From Lama glama (Eukaryota), in NCBI GenBank assembly GCA_028534125.1, contig CM052816.1, forward strand, positions 58,406,001 to 58,470,000: DNA of 64,000 nt. Reading direction: 5' to 3'. A program made the position numbers and the translations under genes. The notes under the pieces were generated by a model that worked only from the letters and a program-made list of their open reading frames with translations, searched no databases and was not told where the DNA came from. Shown one piece after another: positions 30,701 through 63,412 of this stretch. How positions within the stretch are numbered: the stretch's first letter is position 1; every line of letters begins with the position of its first letter.

Positions 30701-33700
30701 TCTATTAGAACAATGTTTTTTAGCACTTAGGCTCCCTTCCACTTTCCCTGAAAACTGTTTAGTAAAAGAGTACCCTTCACCTGTGTTTGCAACTCCATTC
30801 GAAATAGTGCCCTAGTTACTTAGGCAATACATACTACTTTTTGGTCAGACTTCTGTTCATGTCTAATATACTCAACACCCAGAAATTTAAAACATAGGAA
30901 AGAAGAATCTTCCTGAGAAGATTAGGGAAAAATGTAAATTTTAGTAAATAAAAATCAAAAATCTGGGAAAGAAACAGATGTGTCAATTTAAAAAAATCTA
31001 CACTTCTGTTAACAAACCAGCTTTTTACTCCATCAATAAGTTAGAGTAGGACATCCATAAAGAACAAGTTATTTTTATTTCCTATTCTGAAAGTATTTGG
31101 TAAGTAAAACTTTACCTTGTTGGTTTACTGAAACACTGCTCTTCAACAACTGAACACACAGAATTATCCCCTACAGTTTTTTTTGCAACACTTCCTGATG
31201 GTCCAACTTCTGATTGAGCATCTTTTTTTGCCAAACCAGTCTCCTTGGAACCTACACAATCTTTTCTTGCTGAAACCTCCAGAGATGTCAGAAATTCAGC
31301 CTTTTCCTTAAATTTAAGAAGAAACAGCTAATATTACCATGGAAACAATCTGTATGGTAATTTGGTTTGGTAGCTTGGCCTAAAGCTCTGAGCTTACATA
31401 CATATACACAACTGACTGGTTTCTAAATTTTTATAATATTGGGAAGTCAATCAATTTTCATGAAAGTAGTTATTGTACAAATGGCAAAACTGTATTTTTT
31501 TAATGTTCTCCTTTATGATACTGATAAACAGAGCGCACTGACAGAAATTACTTTTTGTCAGGGGTAAGGGTGTAGCTCAGTGGTAGAGTGCATGCAAAGC
31601 ATACGCGAGGTCCTGGGTTTAAGCTCCAGTACCTCTATTATTTTTTTAATTTTTTAAAAAATTAATTGAATTAAAATTTTTTTTTAAGTTGGGGGGTGGG
31701 TATAGCTCAGTGGTAGAGCTCATGCTCAGCATGCATGAGGTCCTGGGTTCAATCCACAGTACCACCATTAAAAAACAAACAAAAAGCCAAACAACTCCCC
31801 TCTTCCAAAAAAAGGAGAAATTACTTTTTTTCTAACTTACTTTTTGAAGGAGATGGGTGTCAGATTCTCTATGCTGCAGCAAATTATCTTCTGGCTTTCT
31901 TGCCTGAATCTGATCTTCTCTGTCTTTTTCTATGCCTGGTTCCTCTTTCTTACCATGTGCTCTTCCCAAATTTGGCTTAGCCTTTTGGAATTGCCTTCTT
32001 ATCATTTGTGGTGGACTAGGAACACATGTTTTATGTTCATGTCTAGAATGAAATACAAATCATGTTGAAGAACCAAAATCAGAATTCCTGTTGATATAAC
32101 TTGTTAAACAATTCTGGGCACAAACCAATTCTATGTTCAAAGGACTATATATAGATAGGTAATAAAACTAAGCATATAAAATGAAACCACACATGCTGAT
32201 ACGAAAGAAAGAACATAAAAGCGTTTATAACTTCCCTTTTCTATATAGCCTGGGGAATAGTTTCACAATAATATTAATCTTTTTTCTTTCACTCATTGAT
32301 TTTGATGTGTGGTTTGCTACTTTGAGTACATTTTAGATAAATAACTAGATACAAAACAAAAATGCAGTTGAAGATAGACCTCATAATGGCACTTTAAAGA
32401 AATGCCTTCAACTGGGCTCTGAAGCGTGAACAAATATACAATGGTCACAACAACCTTGGTCCTTCTGGTTCAAGAGCAGGCTTGAAAGCCAGAGTCTATT
32501 CTCCCACCACATGCCTGTCAGCTCATAGAAAAGGGTATACCGACAGCCCGTGTCATAAAGATCTCAACATAACCCATTTGTATCTGCAAAATCAGAGAAA
32601 AACAAGGTTTTAACATTCAATACAGTAGCCATAGCTCCCAAGGCAACTCAAGCAGCTGTCTCAAGGTTTTCTGGGAAATACTGAGTAACTGGCAAGGATC
32701 TGAATTAGGAAGTTTAAAACTAATATAAATCTAGATATTTATATATAACTGAGTATGTAAGTATCTATCATGAGTTCTCTGAAAGATTTGTGTTAAAGAC
32801 TAATCATAAGTAATTTTTCTAATAAATTACCTAGAAGAGAATGTAATTAGTTACATTTCCAAATGTTTCAACCCCGCTAAGTTCTTCCAGAGTGAAACAT
32901 CAAGGAAGTTCACAGGAAGTTATAACAAGGTGATGATGCTGGTTAATACATTCCAGTGTAGGCTAATGTACTTGGGAAAACAAGTTATATTTAACTTCAA
33001 TATAAGCTACTTACAAACAAGTGTGATTCTACAAAGGTACTTAAGAATAAAACATACTGGGTGGTAGAGTGCATGCTTAGCATGCACAAGCTCCTGGGTT
33101 CAATCCCCAGTACCCTCATTAAATAAATAAAATTTTAAAAAAAAGCAGGGACCCCCTCCCAAAAAATAAAAAATTAAAAAAATGGAAAAGAATACTATAT
33201 TAAAAAAAAGAATAAAATAATACTATATATATATATATAAGCTCAATGTACTACTGAGGTTTCTATATAGGAAATCTTGAAAGTTAAATCTCGCTTATTA
33301 AAAAATAAAATTGCTTGGAACAACTGTAAGAATTTGCTAGTCTGAAAGTCGTAAAATCCTGAAAATTTCAGTTTAAAAGCTAAATTGCCAATGTTACTTT
33401 GAGCAAGCTATTTATGTCCCCTAGATCTATTTAGACAATTATAAATGAGGGCCTTAGAAAGGCTGACCTCAAAGGTCATCAGTCTTAAAGGCTCGTTTAG
33501 AGTAAAAATCAAAATCCTTACAATGGTGCTACATAATCTGCACTTCTGCCTACTCAGCCTTTTCTTTTCATGTATCAACACTTTTCCTCTTTCTGTTTCA
33601 CACTGGTCCCCTCTGCTGTTCCTCAAACATGCCAGACATGCTTTTGCCTTAAGTCCTTTTCAGCTGCTGTTTCCTCTTCCCCTAGACATCCCTTGACTTG

Positions 33701-35381
33701 CTCCTTCACTTCTTTTAGGTATTCTCTCCAATGAGACCCTTTCAAGGAAGCATTCTCTGATCTCTCTGCTAATTAAAATTAAATTTAAAGACTGATATTT
33801 GTCTTAAAATAAAAACAATATGAAAAGACTTTTTCAAGACACCTATACATACACAAAGGGAAACAAAAGAAACAACAGAAGTTCATGCTAAAATAATAAA
33901 CTTCATAAATAAACGCAGACTGTTTAAAGTTATGCGAAATCAATAGCACCACTTGTTCAGATAGATGACATAATGCCCAAATTCTATTCACAGAGGATGA
34001 AAAAAGGATACAATTAACATCTCTTTTGCATTTCCCCACAACCAAATTAATTCTATGTAATTAAAGGAAGGTGGAATATTCAAAGTCAACTTGTAAATGC
34101 TAAAGACATTCTAGAGGAAAATCAATAAATACTTCACTGAAACATGTCCTAGTTACAAAGACAGTGTAGTAAATTAAAATTAGATGGCCACGGACTGTAT
34201 CCAGAAAGGGAAAGATTTTTAAAATTTTCCTTACACACTAAAAAGAAGAAACTAACACATTCTAATTTAGTATCAGTAATAATAAAGCAGATTGTAAGCT
34301 TAATAAATAAAAGTTGTGCTAAAATATCTTCAATCTTCCAGCGTCCCATTTAAAAGATACTATTCTTACAATTTAGCATGGGACACAACTCTAAATACAG
34401 CACATAGGAAGTACTTTACATCACTTCCCATTTATGAATTTTATCAATAGGTTATACATTTCTAAAGATAGAAAGAACTTAAGAAGCTCTACTATACTAG
34501 TTTTAAAAGAATAATGAGGATGCTTGCCAAACTTCTCAGAGAAATTATAAATTAAGAGAACATCAGTCAAAAAATTATAACAATAATAATAATGACACAA
34601 ATGAACTAATTATTATTTTGATTTCTTGAGTACCTGTAAGCACATTTGACTGCCCTTTATGATTAGATTACCGTATTCTGTTGATTCTTATTTTGTAGTT
34701 GGCTTTATTCCTTCGATAACTATGAAAGTTTAAAAAGCTAAAGATCTAATCAGTTATTAGAAACAATAGTTAGTACATATATGTAAACTAAAAAAAAGTG
34801 CAGTATACTGTATATATGAATTTACATGCAATATAATCTGTATGAACAGTCGAACTGTAGTAATTCTACCTAATAAAACTGGAAAAGGAGGAAAAAAAAG
34901 AGAATATCAGTCATGCAATTATTACAGTATAAGAAGAAACAGATTTAAAATATTCCACATTCATATTTTATCCTTTCATAAAACTTATTAAATGTGAAAT
35001 TATATAAAATCAATTATTCAAATATCCAAACTTTATCTTTGAAAAGTTTTATACTTTTCTTATTAAAAGCAAACAAACTCACCTCTGACAATGAGTGTGT
35101 ATATGTCCATGAATGACTAAAAAATTGTGCTGAACACTGGAATTTGACACAACATTGTAAAATGATTATAAATCAATAAAAAATGTTAAAAAAAAAAAAA
35201 GCAAACTCACCTCATCTTTTCATCTAAAACTTTTATTCTGTCAACAGGAAGGTTTTCTAAAGGAACCACGTGACTCTGGTTTTCATACATTCTGCCTTCT
35301 GAAACTTCGGAGGATAAAATTTCAATTTCAGTTGCAATTTGAGAATTTGGCTGAAACGACAAACCTATATTAGTCTTTTTG

Positions 35382-35413
<32 letters not shown>

Positions 35414-38400
35414 CAATGGAACATACCTCTTAAAATCTATCAATCATTAAGAAAGGTATTTAGTTTTTTTAAAATGAAGTCTCAAATTTGAGTTATGTAA
35501 TGTTCAAGTTTTGCTGCCCAAAACAAAATTGCCTAATTCAGAGAGAAAGTTTCAAAGATTATTGCAGCAATATGTTTTTATAATGATTTAAAAACTGTAA
35601 CAGCTATCTGTTGTGAATCCCCTCAAAAAAGTTCAATGCTTGTAGAACGGATAAACAAGATTACACTGTATAGCACAGGGAAATATACACAAAATGTTAT
35701 GATAAATCACAGAGAAAAAAATGTGACAATGAGTGTGTATATGTCCATGAATGACTGAAAAATTGTGCTGAACACTGGAATTTGACACAACACTGTAAAA
35801 TGGTTATAAATCAATAAAAAATGTTAAAAAAAAAAGTTCAATGCGTTTTTTTTTAAAAAGAATACTTAGGAGGAGGATTTCAAATAAAGATTACAATCAT
35901 TTTAATTTAAATATAGATTTTCCCTTGGTAAAGAAAGAGAGAAAAATAAGAGCTGTTAAAACAGGCATTAAACTACTTAGATTTGCTTCTAATATCAAAA
36001 GATTCATCAATAAGAGATTGGTTAAACTGTCATTCAGAACAGCAGAATGTTATGTAGCAGTTAAAAATGATGTAACTCCAAAAATACTTCTTTACGTGGA
36101 AAGCCTCTTAATATAATAAGTTAAAAACAGTTAAATCATAAAGTAATATGTATACAATGATTTTATTATTTAAATTTACACAGGTACACACACATACATG
36201 CATGGAGATGTATCCAGTAGGATATGTCAAAAATTTCTCAGTAGTTATCTCAGAGTGATGAGACTCGGGATAGTTATTATATTATTTTGAATTGACTGAA
36301 CATTTTCACAATGAATAGTCAGTTCATTAGTTAGGGGGAGAAAAACAGTCTATCTTCATTAAAAAGAAAAAATCCACAATGGTAAATCTGAAACAAAACT
36401 GGACATGTTATGTACTCATTGAGTAAATATTAGATGCCTATATTCTAAGTCAAGTCTGAGCTACCATTTGATATTTTAATTTGCATTTAAAGGCTTGATT
36501 TAATTACACAGCAGTAACTCACCAGAGTTAGAAATTTCTTTTTAGTTTCATCTTTTTGTAATGTTCTTTCTTCTTTAATTGTGTCTTTGGCTTCACATTT
36601 TTCTATTATTTGCTTCTGTCCAACCTTTCTTAAGTTTGGTCTTGGTCTCTGAAGTCGGCCCCTTACTGGTCGAGCAGTTTGGATAACACTTTCCTTCATT
36701 TCTTGTTGGAAAGTGTTTTTATTCTGAGTCCTAGAAAAGGGGACAGGAAGAAAGAGAGAAAGCTTGACTGTAAAAAAATGAAAACTACTGTAAAAATATA
36801 AAATTTGAATCTAATAAACTCTATGTAAAAATATTTTGCACATTAAAGGAAAATTAAGTTACTTTCTGATTATAAGTCTATCTTACATTAAAAAAGTTAT
36901 TTCCATTCTCAAAAGGTAATGAACTTATATGAGGCACCTACATGTTCAAATTCATAGCAAGAGAAAGCACAATGGTGGCTGCCAGGGACTGGAGGAAGAG
37001 GAGAATGGGAAATTATTGTTTAATGAATACAGAGTTTCAGTTTGGGAAGATAAAAATGTTCTAGAGATGGTTGGTGGATTGTGCACAACAATGTGTATGT
37101 ACTTAATGCCATGGGACTGTACACTTAAAAATGGTTTAAATGGTAAATTTTATGTTTTACATATCTTACTATAATTTTTCAAAGGTAATGAATACATACC
37201 TTACATACATATATGCTTAAATATATTGTTCTGTATAAGATCTTAAGCAGTTAACATTGGACATAAGCAGGCAAGTATTAAAATCAATCTGATTTTCTAT
37301 TTTAGGCAGTCTGCCATAGGAATAAAAGTAAACCAAGTATTCTTGATACTCACTTTTAAAATATGTTAACACATTTTTTTCAAAAATGAAGAAATATTTG
37401 AAAGAATTTCCTTATTTAAGATTTTTAAAAAACTACCACTGTTTACCCCATGGAGATAACTAATTTCTTTTCCTGGGCGTGTGTAGACTGAGATTCCTCT
37501 TTACGTTCACAAGAACTTGAAGGTGAAAAGTCCTTTTCAGTCTGTAGACATGGTAGTATCACAGCTTCCTCCTGCCTGCAAACTGATTCGTCACTTTCTC
37601 TTGATGTCATTAGGGAAGCCACATCCTAGAAGGCAGATAAAAAAAAAATTCATCAAGTTATTTAAAGTATAAGGGAAAAGGAACTTTAATAAATTGTTAG
37701 AAGAATAAACATAGTCTTTGTAGAGACAACAGGGCAGTATCTATCAAAAATTTTAATTCCCAGCAATTCTACTTCTAGAAATATATCATAAAAACACTCA
37801 AATAAATATCTAGAAAATTATATATAAGGATATTTATTATAGCAATAGGCCCCCCCAAAAACTTAAAGAAAAAGAAAAGAAAAACAAAAAATTGAAAACA
37901 AGACCAATCAGTAGGGAACTGAATAAATTATAGTATCTGTACTCTTAACAGTACAGTCATTTAAAAGATTAATTTCTATATATTGATCCAAAAAAATGTT
38001 CACAATATTGTATTAAGTGAAAAAAATCAGAAGGCAAGCTATGATGCCATTTTTGTAAAGCAATGAAAATACCTGCACACTATTTCTATAAATAAGTATC
38101 TGTACAGAAAAGGTTAGACAGATATATGTAAAACTGCTACAGGATCAACCTGGGAGGGAGAGATGGGCCATTATAAAGGACTCTCATTTTTTAGATGACT
38201 TATTTTTTGCAATTTGAAATTTTTATAATCAGTTAAAATAATCAATAAAAAGTTATTTATCTTCTTTAAATATAAGATTAAGAGGAAAAAGTACAAATGT
38301 TCAAGCATAGTAAGAACTAAGCTAAGATGTAAAAGAAGAATTTTAATTCAAAAAATACATCTCAAGTTTAGAATACTCAACTTATGAGCATTAACGTTTC

Positions 38401-41400
38401 ATTTCGAGGTTTCTGATGCTGTATCACACATCTTAATCTGTTATAGATCAAGTTAATGTAAGTAAAATAATTTCCTTTAACTCATAACAAGCTTTTAACT
38501 TTTTGCCTTCACAACAGAGTGAAATAAAGACGGACTATCATTCTCATTTTCCAGTGAAGAAACTGGTTGCATCACTTGGCTATGGTCAACTATTGAATAA
38601 AGGTCAGAACTTGAACTTGAGCCCAGGCCTCTTAAAATCTTTCCCATGACACACTTGCCCATCATCAGAGATCAAGGTTCTCACACAAACCATGTGGAAC
38701 AATGAGGCACATTAAGTACAGCAATAAAAATATCACACACAGTAAAAATTATATGAGAAAATATTTGCATTATTTCAATTCCAAGTGTTTATTTTAGTAA
38801 CTATAATAACTAAAACAAATATTCTCGATCTTAAACTCACATGTTGAGAAGGGAGAACATGCGTTTGTTCACTTTTCTGCTGTATCACAACAGTCTCTGT
38901 TTTATCAGCTTCAACTTTCTTCCCAGGTGCATATTTTTCTGCTTCCGTAGTCTCTCTCTTTGAAGCTGCTCTTGCTAAGTTTGGTTTTGGTCTTTTGAAT
39001 CTACTTCTCACAAATGGTCCTGGTTTAACTTCAAATGGCTTCTGTTCTTGAGGAAGAGATTTGCTGTTGGAACAAGGATTATCAAACTTTAGGATGAAAC
39101 GAAGGGGCAGTGGGAGTGGAATCTTAGGAGAACCTTAGAGACTTGGCAGTAAATATTTAATTCTAATTCTTAACAGGAAAACAAAACTGGACTATTTGGT
39201 AGATTCTAAAAAACGTGAGTTGTAGAATCCAGGTATAAACCTAGGAATTATAACATCTTTGCACAAAGAAAATACAGGTTTGTCATACTTGTACTGATTT
39301 AGGAATATGTGTTACATATAATTTTGTATGTTAGTAATTCTCACAATCTACTGTAGAATGACCTTAAAACTCTCCCAGTCTTGATTTCAAAATTGTAGAA
39401 TAGATAAACAAGATTACACTGTATAGCACAGGGAAATATACACAAAATGTTATGATAAATCACAGAGAAAAAAATGTGACAATGAATGTGTATATGTCCA
39501 TGAATGACTGAAAAATTGTGCTGAACACTGGAATTTGACACAACACTGTAAAATGATTATGAATCAATAAAAAATGTAAAAAAAAAAAAAAAACTATGGA
39601 CCCCAAGTACAGAAAATAGAACACAGTAGTTATTCCAGGACTCTGGAAGTTCAAGATCAAAGAGTAGAATGGCTAAAACCACAGTGATAGACATAACCAT
39701 TTGTTCAAGATACCAGGGGACTTCTGGAGTTGATTTCTGGAAGTAGATGTCCACTAAGCATCAGCAAACTTTTGCTTTTCTCCTACTCATTCTTTCAAAC
39801 AAAAACAAAATCCTGCCTCCTGTCTGAGCAATTTCACAGTATTTGATTAATATGAATGTGCGGGTAAACAGTATTGAGCTGTTCAATGAAATTTCTGATC
39901 AGTGTAAAACACGGATGCTATTTATTGTCCTTGCTTTATAAGCTAACTTAATACTTTTCAGATTTTACATTTTTTGTCTTAACAATAAGACAAAACTTTT
40001 ACTAATCATTTGGTATGTTTCTGCCTTTTTTTAATTGAAGTATAGTCAGTTACAATGTGTCAGTTTCTGGTGTACAGCGCAATGTCCCAGTCATGCATGT
40101 ACATACATATATTCATATTCATAAAAAAAAAATGCTGTTTGTAACCCAAGCTAATGGAAACAAGGAAACGTATAGGCAAGGCCGACTTCCAATACCTGCC
40201 CGCACCGGGGTGCCTTCTGAAGCACTGCCCCCGGCGCCCCGCTGAGTCCGTGGCGGGGAGACAGGCTGCAACTGCGAATTTCCTTGATAGCTTCTGTCGT
40301 GACCTTAATGCACTTTGAGCAACTTTCTGGTTAGTACATTTAATTTCCTCTCTTTCACAACATAGGTCTGACCCTGACAGGATAAGCTACCACAACTGAG
40401 ATTCAATTATCACCAAATGGAGAGATTGCCCCCATCTGAGTCCCAAATGCGGTGGTTTTCCATTACTACCCACTCCCACTGATCACCATACAGGGTCTTT
40501 TTTGAAAACTATAACCTCGTAAATTCTTTGGCTAATATTAAAAATTTCTTTTATGAAGTTAATAAAATCTTATACTTAAAAAAAAAAAAAAAAACTCTCC
40601 CAGTCTTCCCCAAACCCGCTTAAAATCTCTAACACTATGCTACAGGTGATGTGTCTTAAAATGTCATTTAGTTTAACAAAATCTGCAAATATAACTATAT
40701 GCTTTCTCTTTGAAAGCACACAGATCTATATACACTTTTACCTTAAATTAATATCTGAAAACTGCTCTGGAACATCTGGACTTTGCATCCTCTGTTCTTC
40801 TATTTTACCAAGATCAGAAGCCTGCGAAGAAGTCTCCAAATGACTCAGCTGACTTTGTACTTCCTTTTCAGAATTTTTCTTCTCTTCTACAAATGTATGC
40901 ACCACGGACAGTATTTCACTGCTAATGTCCTGAAAGTAAATCAACACATACACAAGATTCCTTAAGCATTTCACAAATTTCAAACAAAATTGTCTTTTAT
41001 ATGCACACATATATTCTACACATTGTCTTTAAAAAAGCAGAAGTTTGAGGTATTTTATTTTTACATAAAAATGTTAAAACACAGGAAACTTCTGTTTATA
41101 TTGCATATTATGATTTTTCCAAACTACAAATGGCACTACTTACTCAAAAAAACTTAGAAAACTAGAAAATGTCAGAATAGCTTGACCTTCAATTAACAAG
41201 AAACTTTTAATAGAAGGAACTTTTAAAAGTGGAGTGAAGTGGGGTAGAGCAGAAAATAGGAAAACTGACACAGGTACAGTCAAAAGAAATAATTCCAATG
41301 TATGTTCTTATTAGAATTAACACAAATTCAGTCCAATTTCCTATATTCCTTTTATCTATGAGTAACTTTAAAATGACATTAAGAATAGTAACTTTGGGGA

Positions 41401-44400
41401 AGGGTATAGCTCAGTGGTCCAGTGCTTGTTTAGAATGCATGAGGTCCTGGGTTCAACCCTCAATATCTCCATTAAAATAAATAAATAAATAAATAAATAG
41501 ATAAATAAATAAATAAATAAACCTAATTACCCCCCCAAAATTTTAAAAATAAAACAGATTTATTTTAAAAAAAAAGAATGGTAACTTTTCCACAATTAAA
41601 AGAAATTTTTAATTATTTTTCAAAATGATTATATAATTTTTTAAAGTCCTGAAACAGAACTGAGGATTGGGAAAGACTTTACATTTTAAGAGACTTTAAA
41701 TGTTGTTGGATATAAGGGCAATAATCCTAGAATTATTTTGATAATGTTTCTCTGGAAAAGAAATTTTCAAAAATATTCAAAACAATATTTTTAAAGAACA
41801 GAAAAATACGTACTTTAGTATTTAGTGAAGGCACAGCACTGCAGTCACCGCTATGGCTCTGCAATGAACGTGTCTCAGTTTGTCTTGAGGTCCCAGTCTC
41901 CTCTGATTCACTTTTCCTTAGAGAAATGTCTATTCCAGTTTTTTCCAAATCTGTCACCTTTTCCTCAGTAGCACTGATCTCTTCTGCTCTGCTTTTCCTT
42001 AAGGAATTTTCTATTTCAGTTTCTTTCAAATTTGCTTCTGCTTTCTCAATGGCAGGTATCTTTTCTGATACTTCTTCCATTAGAGAAATGTCTCTATTTC
42101 CAGGTTCTTCCAAATCAGTCTTCCTTTCCCCTGTGGCACAGATCCCCACTTGTACCTTTTCCCTTGGGAAAATTTCTACCCCAGTTTCTTTCAAATCTAT
42201 TTCCATTTCATCACCTATAGTTTTGACCACTGAGGCCTTTTCTTGTGTAGATACTTCTCTTCTTTCAGTTTCTTCCAAATCTGTCTCCATTTCCTCAGCA
42301 GCACCAATCATCTCCAGTGTGTTCTCCCTTGCAGAAATTTCTTTTTCAGTTTCTTTCAAACCTGTCTCCATGTCACCTATAGCACTGACCTCCTCTGCAG
42401 CATTTTCCTGTAGGGGTATTTCCCTTCTTTCAGTCTCTTCCAAATCTGCCTCTCTTTCCTCAGTGGCATCAGTCACCTCTGGTACCTCCTCCCTTAGGAA
42501 AATCTCTCTTCCTGTTTCTTTTAAATCTGTCTCCATTTCCACAGTGATATCATTCATTTCTGATATTTTCTCCCTGGGAGAGATGGCTTTTCTTATGGTT
42601 TCTTTTAAGTCTGACTCCATTTCTTGAGTAGTATTAGTCTCCTCAGGAACCTTCTCCCTTGGTGAGGTTTCTAGTCTTACAGTTTCTCGCAAAGCTGCTG
42701 TCATCTCCTTAGGAGCAAGAATTTCCCCTGGTAACTCTTCCTTTGAGAAAATTTCTCTTCTTCCAGCTCTTCCTATATTTGGCTTCGGTTTCTGAAATCG
42801 AGTCTTTAGAATTGGGACTTGTTTATTTGCTTTACTATCTTCTTCAACACTATTTTAAAAAAAAAAAAAAGGCATAATCAAGTTTTAAACCAGACTGCCA
42901 ACTGAAGAGATGATGGTTGAGAAATCACTACTGAAAAGCCAGGAACTCTCAAATAAAAAATTTCTTTTAAATAAAAAAATTAAAAGTAAGGAAGTGCCAG
43001 GAATCTCTGAACTAAATTTAAAAACTAAAGGAGAGAAAATTCCATCCTTTGAACTTAGAGTAAATTTAAAAAAACACATTTATTATATACATAGAAATCT
43101 TATCAATAAGGTCTTAATTAAAGTAGCAGCTAAGAAAGACTCTCCAGTCCTCTACATTGGAGCTAGGCCAGTTTGTGCCTGCTATTCCTACCTCTTCACC
43201 CCTACTATCCTTTACCCAGACACATGTCTTGCTGTTAAGAGTTGAAGAACTCATTTATATGGCCAGATCTGACCAGGATCTTAAATAGCTGGATGGAAGT
43301 ATAATTTAAAGAAGGTGCAGAATACTTAAACAGGCTCATTCAGCTGTAAGAAGGTACACGACACGCCAGACTTCAAATGTAAAGACTGTAAAATAATAAA
43401 AATTACTGTAACTAGACAGTACATACATGGAAGTCCATTATTCTGTTCTCACTACTTTTGTGCCCTGACTATTCCCAAGAGGAAAAAGGTTTTCAAAGCA
43501 TATTAATTCTGTCAATTTGGTTCAGTATCCTCTGGTGGGGAAGTAACAAACAGAGCTTTGGCTATGTGAAGTATGAGTTTCTACATAAGAGTTTCACATA
43601 AAATTTATGTAAACCTTAAACAAAGGTAATATGTGATCAATCTAATCCCAAAGAAACAAATATTAAGAAAATAAGCAGCATTTTCATATTTGGATAGAGA
43701 CATCTAATTTAATGTCTATGTTAAGTGACAGTACCATCCACATTAGGTCTAATTTGTGATGAGTAAATCAACTCATCAAACCACCAACAACTGAGAAATC
43801 ATGAAGGCAATGACACAAACTGCCTTGAAAGGTGAATTTATACTTGTAAATATTATGTAACTTGATATACAGATAACAAATTAATCTGATTTGCTATTGT
43901 TTTCTAAAAAATTATTAATAATTTCTAAAATTTTACATATAATCCAAATATGATGAAGCTTACCTTAGACATTCATTAAGAGCCGTGGGCTCATCTGATT
44001 GCACATTTTGAAAAGAAGTATCCTTTTCTTCAGATTGTGATGTGATGTCTTCACACTCAAACTTTTCACATGACTGATCTATCTGTTCAGGAGTCTTAAT
44101 AGCAAATAACATTTTAAAAAATGTTTCCCATGTCACAATTAAACACCCATTTATAAAAGATTTCATCAAAAACTACATACAATTTGAGTTCAAGGAAAAT
44201 AGTAAACATTTCAAAATATAAAATGATATTCAAGAGGTGCTTTTTAATGTTTTTTCTTTAGATATAGAAAATGTCATAAGCCACACCTTTTACCTCATCT
44301 CAAAGCCCCCATTCTTTTTCTCCCAGTCAGAAAATAAGCAACTGCTTCAGTCTCATCTGTTAGAATTATCCCTTGGGTTCTATCTTACTAAGTCCTTTTG

Positions 44401-47400: not shown

Positions 47401-50400
47401 AAGTTCTTATATTTTGGTTTTACTATCAGTAACATTTCCTTGTAATTAAAAGCTAAATATTTTTATTCCCAACTGTTCAGAAAAAAATTTTATAATTTTA
47501 GTTTTCATCAAGTCTCCAACTCCAGAGGGGAAGGTACAGCCCACTGCCTGGGTTCAACCCGTGTCTCCACTAAAAATAAATTAAAAAATAAATAAACCTA
47601 ATTACCTATCCCCTTCAATTAAAAAAAAAAAGATTCCATTCTGACAGAAGTATAAGTTACCAAATGGATGATTCTCTTTAAAAAACAAACAAACAAAAGT
47701 CTCTCATTCCATACCTTTTCAACTGAAGTTTCTAGATGCAAACTCTTGCTCTCTGCATCTGTTTTACCTTGTGAAAGAACTGATTTCTTCCCAACTGCCC
47801 TTGATAAATTGGGTTTAGGTCTCTGTAATCGTCCTCTCGTCATTGGTTTAATATTTTCTGTTTGATCAGTTTCCCTAGAAAATTAACATTATTTAAACTG
47901 CACCAACACGCAGGCATATTCAAAAGGAAAATTTTTTAAAAATCCAGAGACAGAAAAAAACTCCTTTAAGCTTACAACAAAAGTAGCATAGAAAACTGAA
48001 CAAGAAGAGCAATGAAGGGGTAACTAATTTGTTTTATCCAATGTTAAAAATATACTATTCAGCATCAATAATCAAAATTCTGTGGTACTGACAGGAATAA
48101 ACAGATAAATGGAACACAAAAGAAAACTGAGAAAATGACTCCAAAACACATACGATTATAGTATATAATAAAGTTAGCATTTCAAAACAGTTGAGGATAA
48201 GATGAAATACAAAATAATGTATTTTAAAAATAAATACTAAATTAAATTAATTATGATGGGGAAACTGATAATACTGTGGAATAAAATAAAATTACCTCCA
48301 TTCTTTGTACTGTACTCACAATATATTCTAAATGGATCCAAGATTTAAATGAAACCATAGAGAAAACATGAATGCGTTCATAACCCCGAGATAGGATAAG
48401 CCTTTTTCAAACTTAATTAAAAGTTCAGGAGCCATAAAACAAAAAAAAGAGAGAAACTTGGTAACATAAAAATCAAAAAATTTACATAGCCAAAACATGA
48501 CTAAATCAAATGATAAACCAGAAAAGTATGTTTTACAACTCGTACAACAGGCTAACCTCTCTAAAATATAAAGAGCTCCTACAAAACAGTACCAAAAACT
48601 CATTAGGGGGAGGGTATAGCTCAGTTGGTAGAGTGCCTGCTTAGTATGCACAAGGTCCTGGGTTCGATCACCAGTACCTTCATTAAAAAATAAACCTAAT
48701 TACTCCTACCAAAAGGGAAAGAAAAAACTCATTAAAAAACTGGACAAAGGATGCAAACAACTCACAAAAAGAAAACAAAATAAAAATAGATTTTAAATGT
48801 GAAAAGATGCTCAACTTCACTTCAAAGTAAAAGCTGATAGAGCAAGTGAGCACAAATGTGACAAAACGTTAAGAATCAGAGAATCTATGGGAAATCATAT
48901 ATAAATGTTCATTGTTCTATTCTTTTGACTTTTCTTAAGGTTAGAAAATTTTTAAATAAGCAACTGAAAGAAAAGAATGAAAGAATTACATTATCACTGT
49001 CAAAAAAAGGTGTGGGGTAGAGATATCATACTGAGAGATTATTTTATAATCTATCAAGACCAACAAAAATCCAAGTTTTATAACACTGTTGATAAGGGAG
49101 ACATTTCTCACATTGTTGGTGGGAATATAAACTAGAATAATTCCTAGGGAGAGCATTTTTGAAATACCTATCAGAATCATAAAGGTATAAATGTACACAA
49201 ACACCTATATATCCTCTGGGCTAGCAATCCCATTTTAAGGAACTTATCCTACAAATACACTTACACAAAGATGAAAGGACAGAGGTGTACGTTTCTAAGC
49301 ATTTTGTAAAAACAACATATATAGCCATCAACAGGGCCTGATAATAAATACTGTGATTCATCAATACAACAGAACACTATGCAAGTATAAAAAGAATAAG
49401 GAAGGTCTTTACATAAAAATATGAAGATATAAGACCAAACAATTGCAAAATGGTATGTATAATATTACCATTAGGTTTTTTAAAAGAGTAAAAAAATATG
49501 TGTGTGTGTGTGTGTGTGTGTGAGTATTTCTAGTAGCTTTAATGTTGTTTTAAAAAAAAAAATCTCTGAAAGAATATAAGAAATAAATAACAGTGGTTAC
49601 TTGTTAGAGTGAGTTGGGGACATAGTAGGAGGGACACTCCACTCTATACCTTCTCATACTTTTGGATGTTTGAAAGATAGGAATATATTGCTTATTCCAA
49701 AGACCAGTTTAAATTTTTATTTAAAAGTTAAGTTCGCTTCTCAATGTACTATGCTTTACTGAAAATAAGAATTCATAAACTAAATAGCTTTTAAGCCCAT
49801 ATGAGGAGCTAGGAAGGAGATAAAAAGGAAGTCTGAATTTTTGAGATACATTTTCAAAGGGAGATCCTTGTGGTGCTTTTATTCTGTTTGTAGTGAAGAT
49901 AGTCATTTAACCAGTATTTTCCTACTAGAAAATGTAATACATAATCTCTTTAAACACATCAATATCAAAATCTACTACTTTGACAATAGGCATGAAAAAT
50001 AAACCAAGTAAAAGTTAAATCTCATAGCAAATATTTAGGTTTCCAAATTACTTTAGAATTTTATCATAAGGTATCACTTTGCTATAACTCATATCACTAT
50101 TATACATCAGATATAAAAGACAATCTTTCTGTAGTGAAACATAAAGTGAAAAACCTTGATATCACTAGGACCACAAAACAATTATATAAAGTGGTCTGCA
50201 GTCCCTTCCTAATTCCTAAAGGAAGCAACATTATCATGTTTTAAATAAGAAATTATCAAAATTTTGAAAATAAACTTTAAAATCCTACCATGTAAAATAC
50301 TTACAGTGATTTATTTTTTAGGTCAACATTTCTTTCTTCTGTGTAACTGTCCTCAGCATTATTCACCTTACACAGTGCTCTCATGCCAACTTCTGAGGAA

Positions 50401-56400: not shown

Positions 56401-59400
56401 ATGAGTTTCTAACAAGTTTCCTTGGTAGACAGTTTTTTACATATCTCATCACTACTTGTTGCTGGAGAACTAAGCACAACCTGTATGACTCTACTGGGAC
56501 AGGATTCTTAGAAGCTTGCAACTGTTTTCCCTAGACTTTGACCTATGCGCCTTTTCCCTTTGCTGATTTTGCTCTGTATCCTCTCCTTACAATAAATCTC
56601 AGCTGTTAGTACAACTATATGCTGAATCCTGTGAATCTTAGCAAATAATCGAACCTGGGGGTGGTCTTGGGGTCCTCCAACACAGGCTCTCACAGTCCTA
56701 GGCTGAGTCCTGCCTCTGTCACCACTAACACTGTGAGACTTTGGGGAAAAAAATGACTTAGGATCTCTGAGGCTATTTCTGAGTCATTAAAACAAAAGGA
56801 AAGGGGCTGGGATGTATAACTAATACATAAGGTTTCCTGTAGTTCCAAGATTCTTTAAATTATGTGGTTATAGCTAAACATTACCCTCATAGGTCAGAGT
56901 TCAAATAGTTAAGAAAATAAAAGCCTAAAAATAGGAACACCCACATATAAGAATTTCCTACCTGGTACAAGTCAATATTAACCCTCAGAAATAAACTGTG
57001 CTCGCTCAAACAATACAGTTTAGTTACAGGCCTGAAATATTAGAGTTCAATCTTTTTTTTAATACCAGACTTTTGTCTCAGATTTGTTTTATAGAGGAAA
57101 ATGACAGTAAGTAACCACACATGACATCCCAAAATTCTGATGCTCCTTTACTAGCTACAACTATGTCCTAGATGCAAGAAAGATGTCAAATAGCCCAGTC
57201 ATGCCAATTACAAAATTTAAAAGGGAGTTGCTGTTTGGGGCCAGATGACTGGGAGACCGAAGAAACATGAATTCCCTCCAGTTGGATGCCCTGATGATCT
57301 CAACTACCTGAACTAGATATGAATGCTCTACGATTTGAGGGACAATATTGCAAGTCTATTACTATTAAGTAAAATAAAACACTTTCTTTTAAATAAATAC
57401 CTTTTACATTTTTCCGTGATTTAGAGGACTTTTTCTCCTTTAAACTCTGATTTTTAACAGATTTTTGTTTTCTTTTCTCTTCTTCAGCAAGAACTTTCTG
57501 AAGCAAATGAGCAAAAAAATCGAAGTCAAAAGGGCGCTTTTCCTCTGTTTAAAAAAAAGAGAGAACCTTCAAGTTTTCATTTAAAAAAATAAAAATAACT
57601 TAAATTTTTTTTCCTTAGGTATCATAACATCAAAAGCAAAAGGGCTTATTAGCAGAATAGATAAACAACGCTAATCACTGTAGTATAGTCATAACAGAAT
57701 ACCACTGAGCAATAAAAAGTAATACATTAGTTAAAAAAAAGCAACTACTGATATAAGCAATAATACAGGTGAATCTCACAAATAAGCTGAATGAAAGAAG
57801 CTAAACACTAAAAAGCACATACTATTTGATTCTATGAGTAAGATGTTCTAGAACAAGCTAAACTAATCTATCTATGATGACTCAAATGAAAACAGTGGTT
57901 GTCTGGGTCGGGATTAGCGGTGGAGACTGATGAGAAAGGGAAACAAGTGGCCATTCTGGAGTGATGAAAATGTCCCCCCCAAAAAAAACTTTAATGAAAA
58001 AGAATAAGAAAATGAATATATGTATATATATGCATGATTGGGACACTGTGCTGTACACCAGAAATTGACACTTTGTAACTGACTGTACTTCAATAAAAAA
58101 TTAAATTAAATTAAAAAAAAAAGTCCCATGTCTTGTTTTATGTGGTGGTTACACAGGTGTATTCTTCACCAAAATTCAAACTACAAATTACACTGTGCAT
58201 AAATTGTAAATACACTTTTTTAAAAAGCTAGGATGACTAAGAAGTCCTCAAAAACCTATCCATCACTTTATGTCCTCACTTAATTACAACCCTTTCACTA
58301 TTAACTATGCTCTTTCAAATATTAGCAAAGAGGGAAGTTAATGAGTATTGGTCAGGCCCACTCTCACTAAATACCCACTAACAGTATTATATCAGAAAGA
58401 GTAATCCATGAACAAACCAGAATGAATCCACTCCAGAAGTCAAATCCTTGCCTAAGCTCTACGTATACAAACAGTGAATGCAGACAAAGTGGTGCTCTAT
58501 ATATGTAAGCCCCAAGATTGTTTGGATTACAAGATAAGACAGCCTTAGAAAACAAGGTATATACCAGATTCAGAAAACTAAGCCCAAACCTGAAATTCTT
58601 GAAAGCCCTGTTTTATCATGGACCCAGCTTTTATCTGTTCTGACCGTCCACAAGAATGATTCTGAAAAACAGCACTCAATCCATAAAGATTCTCAGAAAA
58701 ATTCAAGATATAAATTCCAAGAAACATCATTAGGGTTTTTTTTTTCTTAACAACTTCCACTATAAAACACTGAACAGTGAATTTTAAAGATTCTATTATA
58801 ATGGTCTTAACAATGGCTCCACACCCCATAAAGACTGTTTATAGATTTATGGATTCTTTTCTTATTATAATGCATTAAACATAATGAAAAGTTTTAGGAC
58901 CACTTCTCCAAAATGGAAAGGGTTCAGGACTACAGTACTTCAGAGCTTCCAGGAGCCATTCCTGGAAATGGTTTTTCTGAGAACACAATACCACATTGAT
59001 ATGGGATGGGGTCCACTTATCTACCTTTGTGTCTACGCATAAAATAAATGTACCTGCTACACAATCTAAGTACCTCTCTTTAGAATTTTTTTCTAAGATC
59101 AGGACTGACTACAGCAAATGAAAAGTGAATATGTTTATTAATCATAAAATGTTAGTAATTATCTTCCAAACAAAGAACACAGGAACTACTTTAAACAGTA
59201 CATTTAATTCTGTTTTTCTTTACAGATCCCTTGATGTCCTTCTCTGGACTTTAAAAAAAAAAAAGCAATGTTAATTTGAATGAGGCTATTAGTTAAAGGT
59301 GAAAAGCTATACTTCATTACTTCAATCCATAAATTCCTTCAGATCTAAATTCAAATGTCATCTCTTCAGACAGAACTTCCCTGAACACCCAATCTAAATA

Positions 59401-62400: not shown

Positions 62401-63412
62401 AAAAAAAAAAAACACCACCACAAGACATGAGAAAAGGTAGGAAAATGAGACACACAATCAGGGAAATGAAATAAAAAATATAATATCAGAAATGTAACAA
62501 TCACTGAACGGGCTTAACAGCAGACTGAAGATAGCAGAAGACAGGGTAGTGAACTTGTAAACACGGTAACAGAAACTAACCAAATTGAAACGAAGAAAAA
62601 AGACTTGAGGGAGAAGAAAGACAGAGCTTTAATAATATTTAGTACAATGTCATGCAGACTGACACATGTAAGTGAGGCACCAGAAGTAGAGAACAAAGCA
62701 GACAAAAAATATTTTAAAAACCCTTAAGCAAATCATAAACATACTGCTGAACACCAAAGTTAAAAAGAAAAATCTTGAAAACAGTCACAGAAAAACAATT
62801 TCACCAAATATGTGACTACATATTAAAGACTACAGTTACAGTTGACTCTTGAACAACATGAGTTTGAACTGTGTGGTTCCACTTACGCATAGGTTTTTTT
62901 CAATAATAAATACTATAGTACTACACAATCCGAGGTTGGTTGAATCTGTTTTAGAAGTGGGTAGATATAAACCAGAAAATGTAATACTGAGGGTTAAAGA
63001 GATTATACTCAATTTAGAATTGAGAAATATTACATTACTTTTGGAGGGGGTGTAATTAGATAGATTTATTTACTTACCTACTTACTTATTTATTTATAAG
63101 AGGTACTAGGGATTGAAACCAGGACCTTGTGCATGCTAAGCACACACTCTACCACTGAGCTATACCCTCCCCTCCTTACACTACTTTATGAGCTGTAAAG
63201 GATAGTTGTACCAAAAACACAGTAGTGGAAAAGGATGGAATGAGATTTCAATCAAAGGTTAAAAAGTAATACATTTTGGTCTCTTTTCAGTTAACAAATG
63301 TGATGGGTTTACTTTACCTTAATTTCTATCCTGGCTCTATGAGGAAAAAGTTGTCCGATCATAGAAAAGTCAGTTCCCACCATGCTGATGGCTAAAAAAA
63401 ACATATCTGTTT
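6617..63412 (-). CDS. BDP1: BDP1, transcription factor TFIIIB component B'' homolog; 33 coding exons in window, 5' exons lie beyond 64000
   Basis: Hand-spliced GT-AG exons give one frame of 6323 nt with matching phases. It runs from SANT domain ETDMFFLAISMVGTDFSMIGQLFPHRARIEIKNKFKREEKTNGWRIDKAF to C-terminus SEYFFSDIFIEVDETE*, both matching mammalian BDP1 as I recall it. Confidence 0.97.
7200..7960 (+). mobile_element. Old L1 ORF2 3' fragment in the last intron
   Basis: aaaataaattctagatggatc, gatgttcaacctcactcata, ccctcatacactgctgataag, tttgaccagtaattct. Confidence 0.65.
8052..8298 (-). CDS. BDP1: BDP1 exon ~38, 247 nt, phase 2>0
   Basis: PGRRPLGFLSLICSKNSLESDEPTQVHSKKRLKPLIP...DSTATQ. Confidence 0.95.
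8440..8822. mobile_element. Adjacent hAT-Charlie MITE remnants (MER5A-like ~8440-8608, MER58-like ~8619-8822)
   Basis: aatcacctgaggatcttattaaaatg...ctggtcccaggaccacactttgag; gttttactagaacacagc...gttgcaacagagac...aagcctaaaatatttact. Confidence 0.65.
9669..9933 (-). CDS. BDP1: BDP1 exon ~37, 265 nt, phase 1>2
   Basis: GEACKGQDNFPTSGSTHVTPEPQKEQLE...QLPQDERIVSDKKERT...KTPLS; AAG acceptor. Confidence 0.92.
10571..10610 (-). CDS. BDP1: BDP1 exon ~36, 40 nt, phase 0>1
   Basis: MCSKESINVLEEA; acceptor ttttaacag, donor CAG|gtgagt. Confidence 0.9.
10700..12300 (+). mobile_element. Old L1 ORF2 fragment (contains a SINE at 11122-11263)
   Basis: caggaatgcaaagatgattcaatatt, tttgcagatgatatgactgtttatgcggaaaactc (FADD motif), tgaattattcaataaatggtgctggga. 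Confidence 0.75.
11122..11263 (-). mobile_element. Camelid tRNA-derived SINE
   Basis: A/B-box head and family tail motif. Confidence 0.85.
12752..12888 (+). mobile_element. Camelid tRNA-derived SINE
   Basis: gggagggtatagcagagtggtagagtgcgtgcttagcatgcacaaggtcctgggttctatcccc...aaacctagttacctc plus poly(A). Confidence 0.88.
13950..14151 (-). CDS. BDP1: BDP1 exon ~35, 202 nt, phase 2>0
   Basis: VSFPVTSVGQNAVCLSNSERDDSEKPVNLDLVSRKR...HVPPAKKS...YTSE. Confidence 0.93.
14898..15084 (-). CDS. BDP1: BDP1 exon ~34, 187 nt, phase 1>2
   Basis: VNLVANVNQDGEDEQAFILTLVEIPTNAVEEF...PNPLLPAPILVKSVNTEEKEDM. Confidence 0.95.
15444..15507 (-). CDS. BDP1: BDP1 exon ~33, 64 nt, phase 0>1
   Basis: CTPTSIPEVQQKNVNNPQDLT. 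Confidence 0.93.
16548..16593. repeat. Perfect 20-bp inverted repeat with 6-nt loop
   Basis: taattttaaaaaactgaacc-attgaa-ggttcagttttttaaaatta. Confidence 0.9.
17687..17867 (-). CDS. BDP1: BDP1 exon ~32, 181 nt, phase 2>0
   Basis: NKGQEEESGEVQISSVAPVVSSETAPH...GDSVLMLHVPE. Confidence 0.92.
18075..18225 (-). CDS. BDP1: BDP1 exon ~31, 151 nt, phase 1>2
   Basis: ETEKNASKGTELEDKNLESVTTAESKEQSKLACVHSIEE...LTE; AAG acceptor. Confidence 0.92.
19030..19540 (+). mobile_element. L1 3' fragment
   Basis: aaatgcaaatcaaaaccgccatgagatagcacttcatacc...gacccagcaattccacttgtaggtataaacccagagaaatgaaaacatacgtccacac. Confidence 0.75.
20130..20287 (-). CDS. BDP1: BDP1 exon ~30, 158 nt, phase 2>1
   Basis: TTTSEVTDNLRTSIFAKPKPNMKKIFE...EVEIQR. 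Confidence 0.92.
20759..20984 (-). CDS. BDP1: BDP1 exon ~29, 226 nt, phase 1>2
   Basis: VGVCVLPDIHSEDQSHIPFSPDN...EENKIVLEEQSTKEEVGLMEEVKENAVSS; CAGTAG acceptor, donor gtttat. Confidence 0.9.
22050..22142 (-). CDS. BDP1: BDP1 exon ~28, 93 nt, phase 1>1
   Basis: GTNDGSTEAAITLLTMGDLVLQSEINTEQSH; AAG acceptor, donor gtaaga. Confidence 0.93.
22274..22440 (+). mobile_element. Camelid tRNA-derived SINE following a ~50-bp L1 tail (22218-22270)
   Basis: gggggtgtatagctcagtggcagagtgc...aaacctaattacctc; preceded by actaacacaacattataaatcaactatacctc. Confidence 0.82.
22857..22893 (-). CDS. BDP1: BDP1 exon ~27, 37 nt, phase 0>1
   Basis: DMTTGEHIQDET; acceptor cttttag, donor CAG|gtaact. Confidence 0.9.
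23330..26470 (+). mobile_element. Decayed L1 (5' fragment, ORF2 pieces and 3' UTR)
   Basis: ORF2 remnants (ENYKTLLKEIKEELSKWK; KLEPSYTAGGNIKWCSSFGKQF); L1M-type 3' end at aataaagttg ~26465. Confidence 0.85.
24142..24598 (+). mobile_element. MLT1 (ERVL-MaLR) solo LTR nested in an L1
   Basis: tgtggtaaattgaattgtgtcc...gaatgtggccttatttggaaatagggtc...tggtactttgttacagcagccc; L1 ORF2-like sequence on both sides. Confidence 0.8.
26846..26968 (-). CDS. BDP1: BDP1 exon ~26, 123 nt, phase 0>0
   Basis: LEITVNVPDVACIAVVEHQLSNTDVTTQEMKQEENVNALSV. Confidence 0.93.
27254..27379 (-). mobile_element. Camelid tRNA-derived SINE
   Basis: ggaggtactggggattgaacccaggaccttgtacatgctaagcacgcattctaccactgagttataccc. 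Confidence 0.87.
27580..27950 (-). mobile_element. L1 3' end fragment
   Basis: gagatttaatttacatcccatacaattcatcc...gcaaccactaatgtactttctgcctctatagatttt is the reverse complement of an L1M 3' UTR. Confidence 0.7.
28730..29405 (+). mobile_element. L1MB-like 3' end
   Basis: aagtgttggtgaggttgtggaaaaatcagaa...cacttaatgccactgaactg...ggtaaattttatgttatatatattttaccacaatt plus poly(A). Confidence 0.8.
29904..30291 (-). CDS. BDP1: BDP1 exon ~25, 388 nt, phase 2>0
   Basis: CPQQFKESNYSKIA...RRKMKPNVPKGRGSKR...LVTLRASQEEDEDDAEDFESDYEEE...APVFVPVGLRSPEPVSAQIEETMEE. Confidence 0.94.
31116..31306 (-). CDS. BDP1: BDP1 exon ~24, 191 nt, phase 0>2
   Basis: EKAEFLTSLEVSARKDCVGSKE...VEEQCFSKPT; AAG acceptor. Confidence 0.92.
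31561..31813 (+). mobile_element. Two tandem or nested camelid SINEs (heads at 31561 and 31691) within one TSD
   Basis: Two A/B-box heads; direct repeat agaaattacttttt at 31543-31556 and 31816-31829. Confidence 0.85.
31841..32042 (-). CDS. BDP1: BDP1 exon ~23, 202 nt, phase 2>0
   Basis: HEHKTCVPSPPQMIRRQFQKAKPNLGRAHGKKEEP...HLLQK. Confidence 0.93.
33059..33190 (+). mobile_element. 5'-truncated camelid SINE
   Basis: gtggtagagtgcatgcttagcatgcacaagctcctgggttcaatccccagtacc plus A-rich tail. Confidence 0.82.
33480..33780 (+). mobile_element. L2 remnant
   Basis: gtaaaaatcaaaatccttacaatgg...ctgttcctcaaacatgccagacatgc...gctgctgtttcctct. Confidence 0.55.
35086..35200 (+). mobile_element. Young 5'-truncated L1 3' end (copy 1), inserted at the exon-22 donor
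   Basis: ~115 bp including AATAAA and poly(A); TSD aaaagc(aaac)aaactcacctc 35065-35085 and aaaagcaaactcacctc 35197-35213; TT/AAAA site. Confidence 0.9.
35211..35350 (-). CDS. BDP1: BDP1 exon ~22, 140 nt, phase 0>2
   Basis: PNSQIATEIEILSSEVSEGRMYENQSHVVPLENLPVDRIKVLDEKM; donor GAG|gtgagt, duplicated by an L1 TSD. Confidence 0.92.
35377..35410. repeat. (GTTTT)n microsatellite just upstream of the exon-22 acceptor
   Basis: About 6 tandem gtttt units. Confidence 0.85.
35640..35829 (+). mobile_element. Young 5'-truncated L1 3' end (copy 2)
   Basis: Near-identical to copies 1 and 3; perfect TSD aaaaaagttcaatgc 35625-35639 and 35830-35844. Confidence 0.9.
36523..36730 (-). CDS. BDP1: BDP1 exon ~21, 208 nt, phase 2>0
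   Basis: TQNKNTFQQEMKESVIQTARPVRGRLQRPRPNLRK...KFLTL; donor gtgagt. Confidence 0.94.
37447..37625 (-). CDS. BDP1: BDP1 exon ~20, 179 nt, phase 0>2
   Basis: DVASLMTSRESDESVCRQEEAVILPCLQTEKDFSPSSSCERKEESQS... Confidence 0.92.
38841..39063 (-). CDS. BDP1: BDP1 exon ~19, 223 nt, phase 2>0
   Basis: KSLPQEQKPFEVKPGPFVRSRFKRPKPNLARAASKRE...LPSQH; donor gtgagt. Confidence 0.94.
39383..40590 (+). mobile_element. Young L1 3' end (copy 3, 39383-39593) carrying a ~985-bp 3' transduction
   Basis: TSD aaaactctcccagtctt 39366-39382 and 40591-40607; internal poly(A) ~39578-39593; second AATAAA 40561-40566 followed by poly(A) from 40578. Confidence 0.9.
40742..40929 (-). CDS. BDP1: BDP1 exon ~18, 188 nt, phase 0>2
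   Basis: DISSEILSVVHTFVEEKKNSEKEV...PDVPEQFSDINL. Confidence 0.93.
41396..41573 (+). mobile_element. Camelid SINE with (AAAT)n expansion
   Basis: ggggaagggtatagctcagtgg...; TSD aagaat(a/g)gtaacttt 41381-41395 and 41574-41588. Confidence 0.88.
41814..42849 (-). CDS. BDP1: BDP1 exon ~17 (large exon with acidic ~27/55-aa tandem repeats), 1036 nt, phase 2>0
   Basis: VEEDSKANKQVPILKTRFQKPKPNIGRAGRRE..., in frame with ORF 41733..42704; repeated DLKET/DLEET units; donor AAA|gtacgt. Confidence 0.94.
43964..44094 (-). CDS. BDP1: BDP1 exon ~16, 131 nt, phase 0>2
   Basis: TPEQIDQSCEKFECEDITSQSEEKDTSFQNVQSDEPTALNECL; AAG acceptor, donor gtaagc. Confidence 0.9.
44890..45085 (-). CDS. BDP1: BDP1 exon ~15, 196 nt, phase 2>0
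   Basis: LSEKICLQEDNQPKAFRPSRLMRGLLQRPKPNVGKAAERKE...CIDRD. Confidence 0.93.
45893..45984 (-). CDS. BDP1: BDP1 exon ~14, 92 nt, phase 0>2
   Basis: NHMEKDKMNTFDIPGMENSERENPEADTVS; acceptor tgtag, donor gtaagt. Confidence 0.92.
47525..47630 (+). mobile_element. Internally deleted camelid SINE
   Basis: ggggaaggtacagcccactgcctgggttcaacc...aaataaacctaattacct. Confidence 0.65.
47715..47874 (-). CDS. BDP1: BDP1 exon ~13, 160 nt, phase 2>0
   Basis: ETDQTENIKPMTRGRLQRPKPNLSRAVGKKSVLSQGK...SVEK. Confidence 0.94.
48606..48722 (+). mobile_element. Camelid tRNA-derived SINE
   Basis: gggggagggtatagctcagttggtagagtgcctgcttagtatgcacaaggtcctgggttcgatc; TSD aaaaactcatta. Confidence 0.88.
49499..49522. repeat. 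(TG)n microsatellite
   Basis: About 12 TG units. Confidence 0.9.
50305..50463 (-). CDS. BDP1: BDP1 exon ~12, 159 nt, phase 2>2
   Basis: SQQDALSIATETSESSTSDLPSSEVG...VDLKNKS; tandem TAGTAG acceptor, donor gtaagt. Confidence 0.92.
50941..51096 (+). mobile_element. Camelid tRNA-derived SINE
   Basis: gggggaggatatagctcaagtggtagagc...gtcctgggttcaattc...aaacctaattacctcc plus poly(A). Confidence 0.88.
52095..53480 (+). mobile_element. L1 (L1MA-like) ORF2 3' part and 3' UTR
   Basis: HIDQGNRRDRPEINPHIYSQMIFDK ORF2 remnant; typical 3' UTR and A-rich tail. Confidence 0.85.
53850..53997 (-). CDS. BDP1: BDP1 exon ~11, 148 nt, phase 1>2
   Basis: NKCLSLSPEINEDEGNKEQ...EKRIDPILSS; AG/GT boundaries. Confidence 0.92.
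54885..55166 (-). CDS. BDP1: BDP1 exon ~10, 282 nt, phase 1>1
   Basis: VKKVASERVNNDPDES...KGEKHK; acceptor ttttcag, donor gtaagt. Confidence 0.93.
56144..56684 (+). mobile_element. MER21-like solo LTR
   Basis: tgtacagaaaggacttaacatagcaggcct...ggtcctccaacaca; TG..CA ends; 5-bp TSD ggctc (56139-56143, 56685-56689); internal AATAAA. Confidence 0.85.
57401..57544 (-). CDS. BDP1: BDP1 exon ~9, 144 nt, phase 1>1
   Basis: QEKRPFDFDFFAHLLQKVLAEEEKRKQKSVK...; AG/GT boundaries. Confidence 0.95.
57690..58220 (+). mobile_element. Old L1M 3' end with a younger L1 tail nested at ~57977-58121
   Basis: Old L1 3' UTR interrupted by atgaaaaagaat...gctgtacaccagaaattgacactttgtaactgactgtacttcaataaa plus A tail; imperfect TSD aaaatgtccc/aaaaagtccc. 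Confidence 0.7.
59310..59605 (+). mobile_element. L2 3' end remnant
   Basis: ccttcagatctaaattcaaatgtcatctcttcag...ttccctga...cagtgactagcacacagcagg...tgactgagtga. Confidence 0.6.
59960..60014 (-). CDS. BDP1: BDP1 exon ~8 (SANT domain end), 55 nt, phase 0>1
   Basis: NKFKREEKTNGWRIDKAF; acceptor aacag, donor gtaagt. Confidence 0.95.
60957..61099 (-). mobile_element. Camelid tRNA-derived SINE
   Basis: ggaggtactggggattaaacccaagacc...tgagctataccctccccc. Confidence 0.85.
62839..62950. mobile_element. TcMar-Tigger end fragment
   Basis: ta-cagttgactcttgaacaacatgagtttgaactgtgtggttccacttacg terminal sequence. Confidence 0.65.
63040..63175 (-). mobile_element. Camelid tRNA-derived SINE
   Basis: Family head and tail; TSD ttaca(t/c)tacttt. 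Confidence 0.85.
63318..63412 (-). CDS. BDP1: BDP1 exon ~7 (SANT/Myb-like domain), 95 nt, phase 1>0
   Basis: (E)TDMFFLAISMVGTDFSMIGQLFPHRARIEIK; acceptor tttacag, donor AAG|gtaaag. Confidence 0.96.

Follow-up and report, generated by a model that had tools for sequence, protein, structure and literature searches.

An antisense L1-like insertion in llama BDP1 stands between two identical splice donors, the downstream of which is probably a mostly silent pseudo-site

When a retroelement insertion leaves a gene with two identical splice donors in a row, which of them ends the exon, and what happens if the other is used? BDP1 (TFIIIB B'') raises this question in the 64,000-nt stretch of Lama glama DNA analysed here (the window), which contains most of the gene on its minus strand. 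The account we consider probable is that a 5'-truncated, poly(A)-tailed, antisense L1-like element lies between the two donors (Table 1), and that the downstream donor is a mostly silent pseudo-site, taken by less than about 5% of transcripts. The insertion is then probably a tolerated accident, not a regulatory switch.

Table 1. Features of the BDP1 exon, its two donors and the insertion, in positions of the window
Feature	Position	Strand	Details and basis
BDP1 coding exon (studied exon)	35211..35350	-	140 nt, phase 0 to 2, residues 1408-1454 of P0124
Next BDP1 exon, acceptor at 32042	31841..32042	-	protein mapping and sequence
Upstream (native) donor GAG/GTGAGT, exon end 35211	35205..35213	-	sequence; junction peptide in 13/15 camelid models
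Downstream (new) donor GAG/GTGAGT, exon end 35083	35077..35085	-	sequence; predicted weak hairpin with the insert's own end
TGA within upstream donor, first in-frame stop if downstream donor is used	35207..35209	-	translation MR-stop
Body of the antisense insert, an L1-like 3' tail with AATAAA at 35175	35086..35187	+	102 nt
13-A run, poly(A) tail plus A's of the target-site duplication (TSD)	35188..35200	+	read as U13 from +11 of upstream donor
Right TSD copy, 17 nt	35197..35213	+	spans -3 to +14 of native donor
Left TSD copy, 21 nt	35065..35085	+	17 nt plus extra AAAC
TT/AAAA, canonical L1 endonuclease target	35063..35068	+	sequence; consensus as given in PMC12934576, PMC3219598
Sister copy, about 195 nt	35641..35835	+	own perfect 15-nt TSD; in preceding intron
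Second sister copy	39394..39588	+	TSD looked for, none found

The gene structure was anchored on the alpaca RefSeq model P0124, which aligns to the window as 33 blocks in which almost every internal residue matches; over 2069 aligned positions it gives 2026 identities, versus 1964 for a wild-camel model. Seventeen P0124 blocks follow the studied exon, which we take to be exon 22 if BDP1 has 39 exons as in human, a number that the 17 blocks fit. Joining 35211 to 32042 encodes DEKMR-HEHK (hyphen at the junction), the same as in alpaca P0124. A (TTTTG)6.8 microsatellite at 35377-35410 forms, on the gene strand, an A-rich block just upstream of the short pyrimidine tract at acceptor 35351, and an unannotated strong donor-like GAG/GTATGT lies at 35427 (minus strand), 77 nt before that acceptor. 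Elsewhere in the gene, the large exon at 41814-42854 (minus strand) contains about 2.3 or more copies of a 165-nt (55-residue) repeat, and the matching region is longer in the tree shrew protein P0002. Outside the BDP1 exons, 1215-1586 (plus strand) is an intronless frame with a Pfam Ribosomal_L7Ae match (E 6e-19), presumably a processed RPS12 pseudogene.

A sequence-only reading of this stretch had reported two identical donors at exon ends 35211 and 35083, and both are there: GAG/GTGAGTTTG (slash at the exon end) occurs at each, with a spacing of 128 nt. On the gene strand the two copies are the same from -3 to +9, and the 12-mer CAAACTCACCTC is found at 35074 and 35202 and nowhere else in the window. 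Its chance expectation is 4.6e-8 per position, or 2.3e-5 within 500 nt. Exact non-low-complexity repeats of at least 12 nt, 60-300 nt apart, number 14 in the window, so that a repeated 12-mer is not rare by itself; the weight of the evidence is that the repeat precisely brackets an insert with a poly(A) tail. Among 32 BDP1 donors this is the only one with a second copy of its 9-mer in the next 500 nt. Unannotated sites that look like strong donors are common, as the gene strand holds 43 other unannotated GT sites with at least seven of nine consensus matches.

The anatomy of the insert points to the origin of the second donor. The same reading had ascribed the repeat to a TSD with four extra base pairs in its distal copy, and the sequence bears this out: AAAC is present in the left copy, on the side of 35083, and the TT/AAAA site, the 17-nt duplication, the poly(A) and the truncation relative to sister copies all argue for a TSD. 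Hallmarks of TPRT are found together (a TTTT/AA target, a 17-nt TSD with 4 bp more in one copy, A13 after AATAAA), as is that of a 5'-truncated LINE-1, namely dispersed sister copies reaching further 5'. The TSD is of the size expected for L1 endonuclease-dependent insertion, about 7-20 bp (PMC3219598), and an origin of the insert via L1 endonuclease is well supported. The insert (35086-35197) is 97.3% identical to 35724-35835 and 95.5% identical to 39477-39588, and both sister copies run about 83 nt further 5'. In all, three tail copies of 95-97% identity (35086-35200, 35641-35835 and 39394-39588) lie within 4.5 kb, every one antisense to BDP1. The two longer copies share about 195 nt and diverge just before, which could reflect either a hot spot for truncation or membership of a short non-autonomous family.

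The insert body is named 'L1' by its resemblance to the camelid L1 3' UTR. L1 elements are reported to be abundant in camelids, where the name L1-2_Vpa exists (PMC8605555, PMC6726744). Pattern scans for the tail had 0 matches among viral, metagenome and genome contigs, as did a scan of metagenomes for the junction pattern, and Pfam returned nothing for three of three degraded older L1-like frames. At 57998-58123 (plus strand) and 40028-40116 (minus strand) the tail has older relatives of 68-73% identity. The window also carries 12 or more other copies of a short SINE-like element, whose shared part is 77-90% alike (for example 33061-33131, 31567-31780, 48603-48706 and 63079-63177). The insert looks recent, given two private differences in its 102-nt body; next to a k-mer-implied divergence of about 2% from organisms A and B, this number is compatible with insertion either before or after that split. 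In sequencing runs (n=24), words of another BDP1 exon were present at 0.92-1.00 in organism C and 0.51-0.55 in A and B, a result that carries no weight here.

From this anatomy we infer an L1-endonuclease nick in the gene-sense strand at intron +14 (TTTT/AA), where the cDNA would have been primed, and a second nick at exon -3, which would have left 17 nt duplicated, the donor included. Four base pairs would later have been gained or lost in one TSD copy. A nick at +14 would never have broken the native donor, so the earlier suggestion that the TSD had restored the proximal donor is not supported: the proximal site would have stayed intact, and the TSD would have added the downstream one.

What the downstream donor would produce can be translated directly. 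Across the upstream donor the frame reads MR-stop-VCFFFF-stop, in which the first stop is a TGA and the second is the TAA after the poly(T). The TGA (35209-35207) lies 124 nt before the 35083 junction, and 16 more junctions follow downstream. A stop codon is expected to elicit NMD when it precedes a later junction by more than 50-55 nt. With the TGA 124 nt ahead of the new junction and further exons after it, the stop position is that of AS-NMD, and a transcript using the downstream donor would therefore be predicted to have an NMD-like outcome. The earlier proposal of an NMD-type product agrees with the sequence in its outcome, while the stop it had named, the TAA, gives way to the TGA inside the upstream donor.

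Protein models indicate which donor is annotated. We examined 15 of the 20 camelid models in the cluster; all 15 are full length and end the studied exon at the upstream donor, and 13 of them, including four of four from alpaca, read DEKMR-(H/C)EHK across the junction. The other two, from dromedary (P0132 and P0134), pass from the upstream donor to an acceptor at 31424 and skip the next exon; their splice into 31424-31398 (minus strand) is likely a prediction artefact. The peptide NQSVVYMY, which follows DEKMR in dromedary, was considered as exonised insert and rejected, as it maps to 31424-31398 in the next intron. More widely, a regular expression for the junction matched 76 of 136 proteins, and P0132 and P0134 were the two inspected among the 60 misses. 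In a weak test covering 18 candidates of 82-2000 aa, none was a separate truncated protein with the studied exon, and the only shorter protein returned with that exon was a wild-camel draft model. The upstream donor is the annotated one, and protein models cannot exclude an NMD isoform. The exit of 4/4 alpaca and 15/15 camelid models at the upstream donor supports a mostly silent downstream site, and so does the abundance of the 43 donor-like sites.

Why should the upstream copy be favoured? Both donors are strong, with 8 of 11 U1 matches, and MaxEntScan cannot separate them because the 9-mers are identical and the scores are equal by construction. The two differ in their surroundings. With donors placed by a nearest-GT rule, so that a few may be wrong, the U fraction from +10 to +28 is 0.74 at the upstream donor, the highest of 32 (mean of the other 31, 0.41; maximum, 0.58), and 0.42 at the downstream one. 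The upstream donor is followed by a U13 run from +11, and the preceding 70 nt hold five GAR triplets versus one for the downstream donor. The predicted energy for opening the 9-mer over five window settings is 3.6-4.5 kcal/mol upstream versus 5.5-8.3 kcal/mol downstream. The downstream value of 5.54 is above 21 of the 25 donors taken for this comparison from the 31 others, and is inside the native range. A hairpin as the main cause of silence was rejected, since the hairpin predicted at the downstream donor does not stand out from shuffled sequences (z -1.27 and -0.91).

These differences suggest a simple mechanism. The upstream donor would be transcribed first and would retain its purine-rich exon, and it would have gained the U13 within +10 to +28, a region in which TIA1/TIAL1 may bind and aid U1 binding. 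The downstream donor would be partly paired and would come after antisense sequence that is rich in U and poor in enhancer-like motifs. In the rare transcripts that used it, the stop would lie 124 nt ahead of the newly formed junction and lead to NMD. Several published systems are consistent with such a preference, and together with the context asymmetry they favour the upstream site. A U tract between two donors is reported to select the upstream one via TIA proteins, even versus a stronger downstream donor (PMC2766253), and transcriptome-wide, TIA crosslinks at 10-28 nt past the upstream member of a donor pair are predictive of splicing at that donor (PMC2964331). Of 31 intronic elements inserted between competing donors, 26 suppressed use of the downstream site (PMC1877881). 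In F7 intron 7, where identical donors are repeated, splicing uses the most upstream alone, and repeated donors in LMNB2 and PDGF also stay unused (PMC1557585). The same source describes counter-cases, with downstream repeats used in 6-16 and CBS, and conflicting results from globin duplication experiments (PMC1557585). SRSF1 can shift donor choice downstream (PMC5585400), and in NF1 18 of 18 insertions disturbed splicing, in a set ascertained through disease (PMC3219598). The TIA mechanism is weakened by the description of TIA as mainly helping weak donors, as this donor is strong. Identical strong donors separated by more than about 40 nt are said, by Eperon and others, often to favour the downstream member; a literature search for such a preference found nothing.

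One alternative is that the downstream donor is leaky without being regulated, with at least 5% of transcripts using it, NMD removing them and the resulting drop in BDP1 output being tolerated. This we regard as unlikely, although it has several points in its favour: the U1-pairing sequence is the same from -3 to +9, the exon extended to the downstream donor would be 268 nt and still ordinary in size, and NMD would conceal the product from protein models. The use of downstream repeats in 6-16 and CBS is on the side of a leak, and the unused repeats of F7, LMNB2 and PDGF are against it (PMC1557585), as is the context asymmetry of the two donors here.

A regulated switch based on unproductive splicing, the idea of the sequence-only reading, in which the level of TIA or SR proteins, or alleles differing in poly(U) length as in merle, would tune use of the downstream donor and with it BDP1 and Pol III output, seems to us very improbable. 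All the parts are there, in that a U tract separates two identical donors and a stop follows at once; TIA levels are reported to shift such choices in a minigene (PMC2766253), and tail length to set splice choice in merle (PMC7349775). Against this, the insert looks recent, and none of the literature found on BDP1 splicing, NMD or TFIIIB, taken at the level of titles and the start of abstracts, points to a switch. Regulated poison events are usually deeply conserved, which also counts against it. The least probable reading, to which we give hardly any credence, is that the insert belongs to a short non-autonomous family moved by L1 rather than being a truncated L1, or that the repeat is not a TSD: the insert's two sister copies match each other over a common stretch of about 195 nt and its TSD copies differ by 4 bp in length, but the canonical target, the TSD length, AATAAA and poly(A) are all present, one sister copy has a perfect 15-nt TSD, and the body resembles the camelid L1 3' UTR. 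A non-autonomous origin would change the name and leave the splicing argument as it is.

The ingredients of a mostly silent pseudo-donor at this locus are all known already. We found no earlier report of the BDP1 insertion, or of an intact donor duplicated by a TSD, in the open-access literature, subscription journals being mostly outside it, and no mention of the tail motifs of the insert in the literature searched. If the downstream donor is silent, the locus provides a clean natural test case for how one of two equally strong, identical donors is chosen, and it offers a reason why such insertions can persist, the tail itself favouring the native site. Target-primed geometry drops the poly(U) behind the first donor copy automatically, so antisense donor-duplicating insertions would be self-buffering, an idea testable genome-wide. 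If instead the site is leaky and tunable, one retrotransposition would have created lineage-specific dosage control on BDP1. The U tract is the place where length variants would divert splicing to a ready-made dead end, and mutation of the native donor would likewise do so. A bolder synthesis, which we put forward as improbable, would see a one-step antisense L1 poison-donor cassette, complete with duplicate donor and built-in stop, in an essential Pol III factor, a donor-side merle in which the length of a TIA-responsive U tract sets the leak, with self-buffering general to donor-duplicating antisense insertions.

The locus can be placed beside four known systems. The L1-endonuclease insertions in NF1 and MET share the target consensus and the TSD sizes (6-17 bp), and include a poly(T) of about 120 bp located 3 nt from an NF1 donor; they differ in being disease-ascertained, disruptive and mostly exonic or at acceptors, and the accessible text of these sources describes no duplicated intact donor among them (PMC3219598, PMC12934576). 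The pseudo-donors of the human F7 intron 7 minisatellite are alike in that identical donors lie downstream of the native one and the upstream site is used, whereas F7 has a 37-bp tandem repeat with a weak donor and no TSD, and BDP1 two strong donors 128 nt apart (PMC1557585). In the antisense Alu of ADAR2, whose internal poly(U) tract responds to TIA, a retroelement U tract likewise comes just after the upstream donor with the rival donor further down; there, both donors are inside the exonised Alu and unequal in strength, and the effect is experimental where that in BDP1 is inferred (PMC2766253). The merle SINE in dog PMEL is again an antisense retroelement at an exon-intron boundary, with a TSD (15 bp in merle) that contains a splice site and a poly(T) tract that bears on splice choice (PMC7349775). 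The BDP1 insert resembles its mirror image on the donor side, with U13, an immediate stop and no known effect, whereas the merle insertion is on the acceptor side, with a longer and variable tail, in-frame exonisation via a cryptic site and a visible phenotype (PMC7349775).
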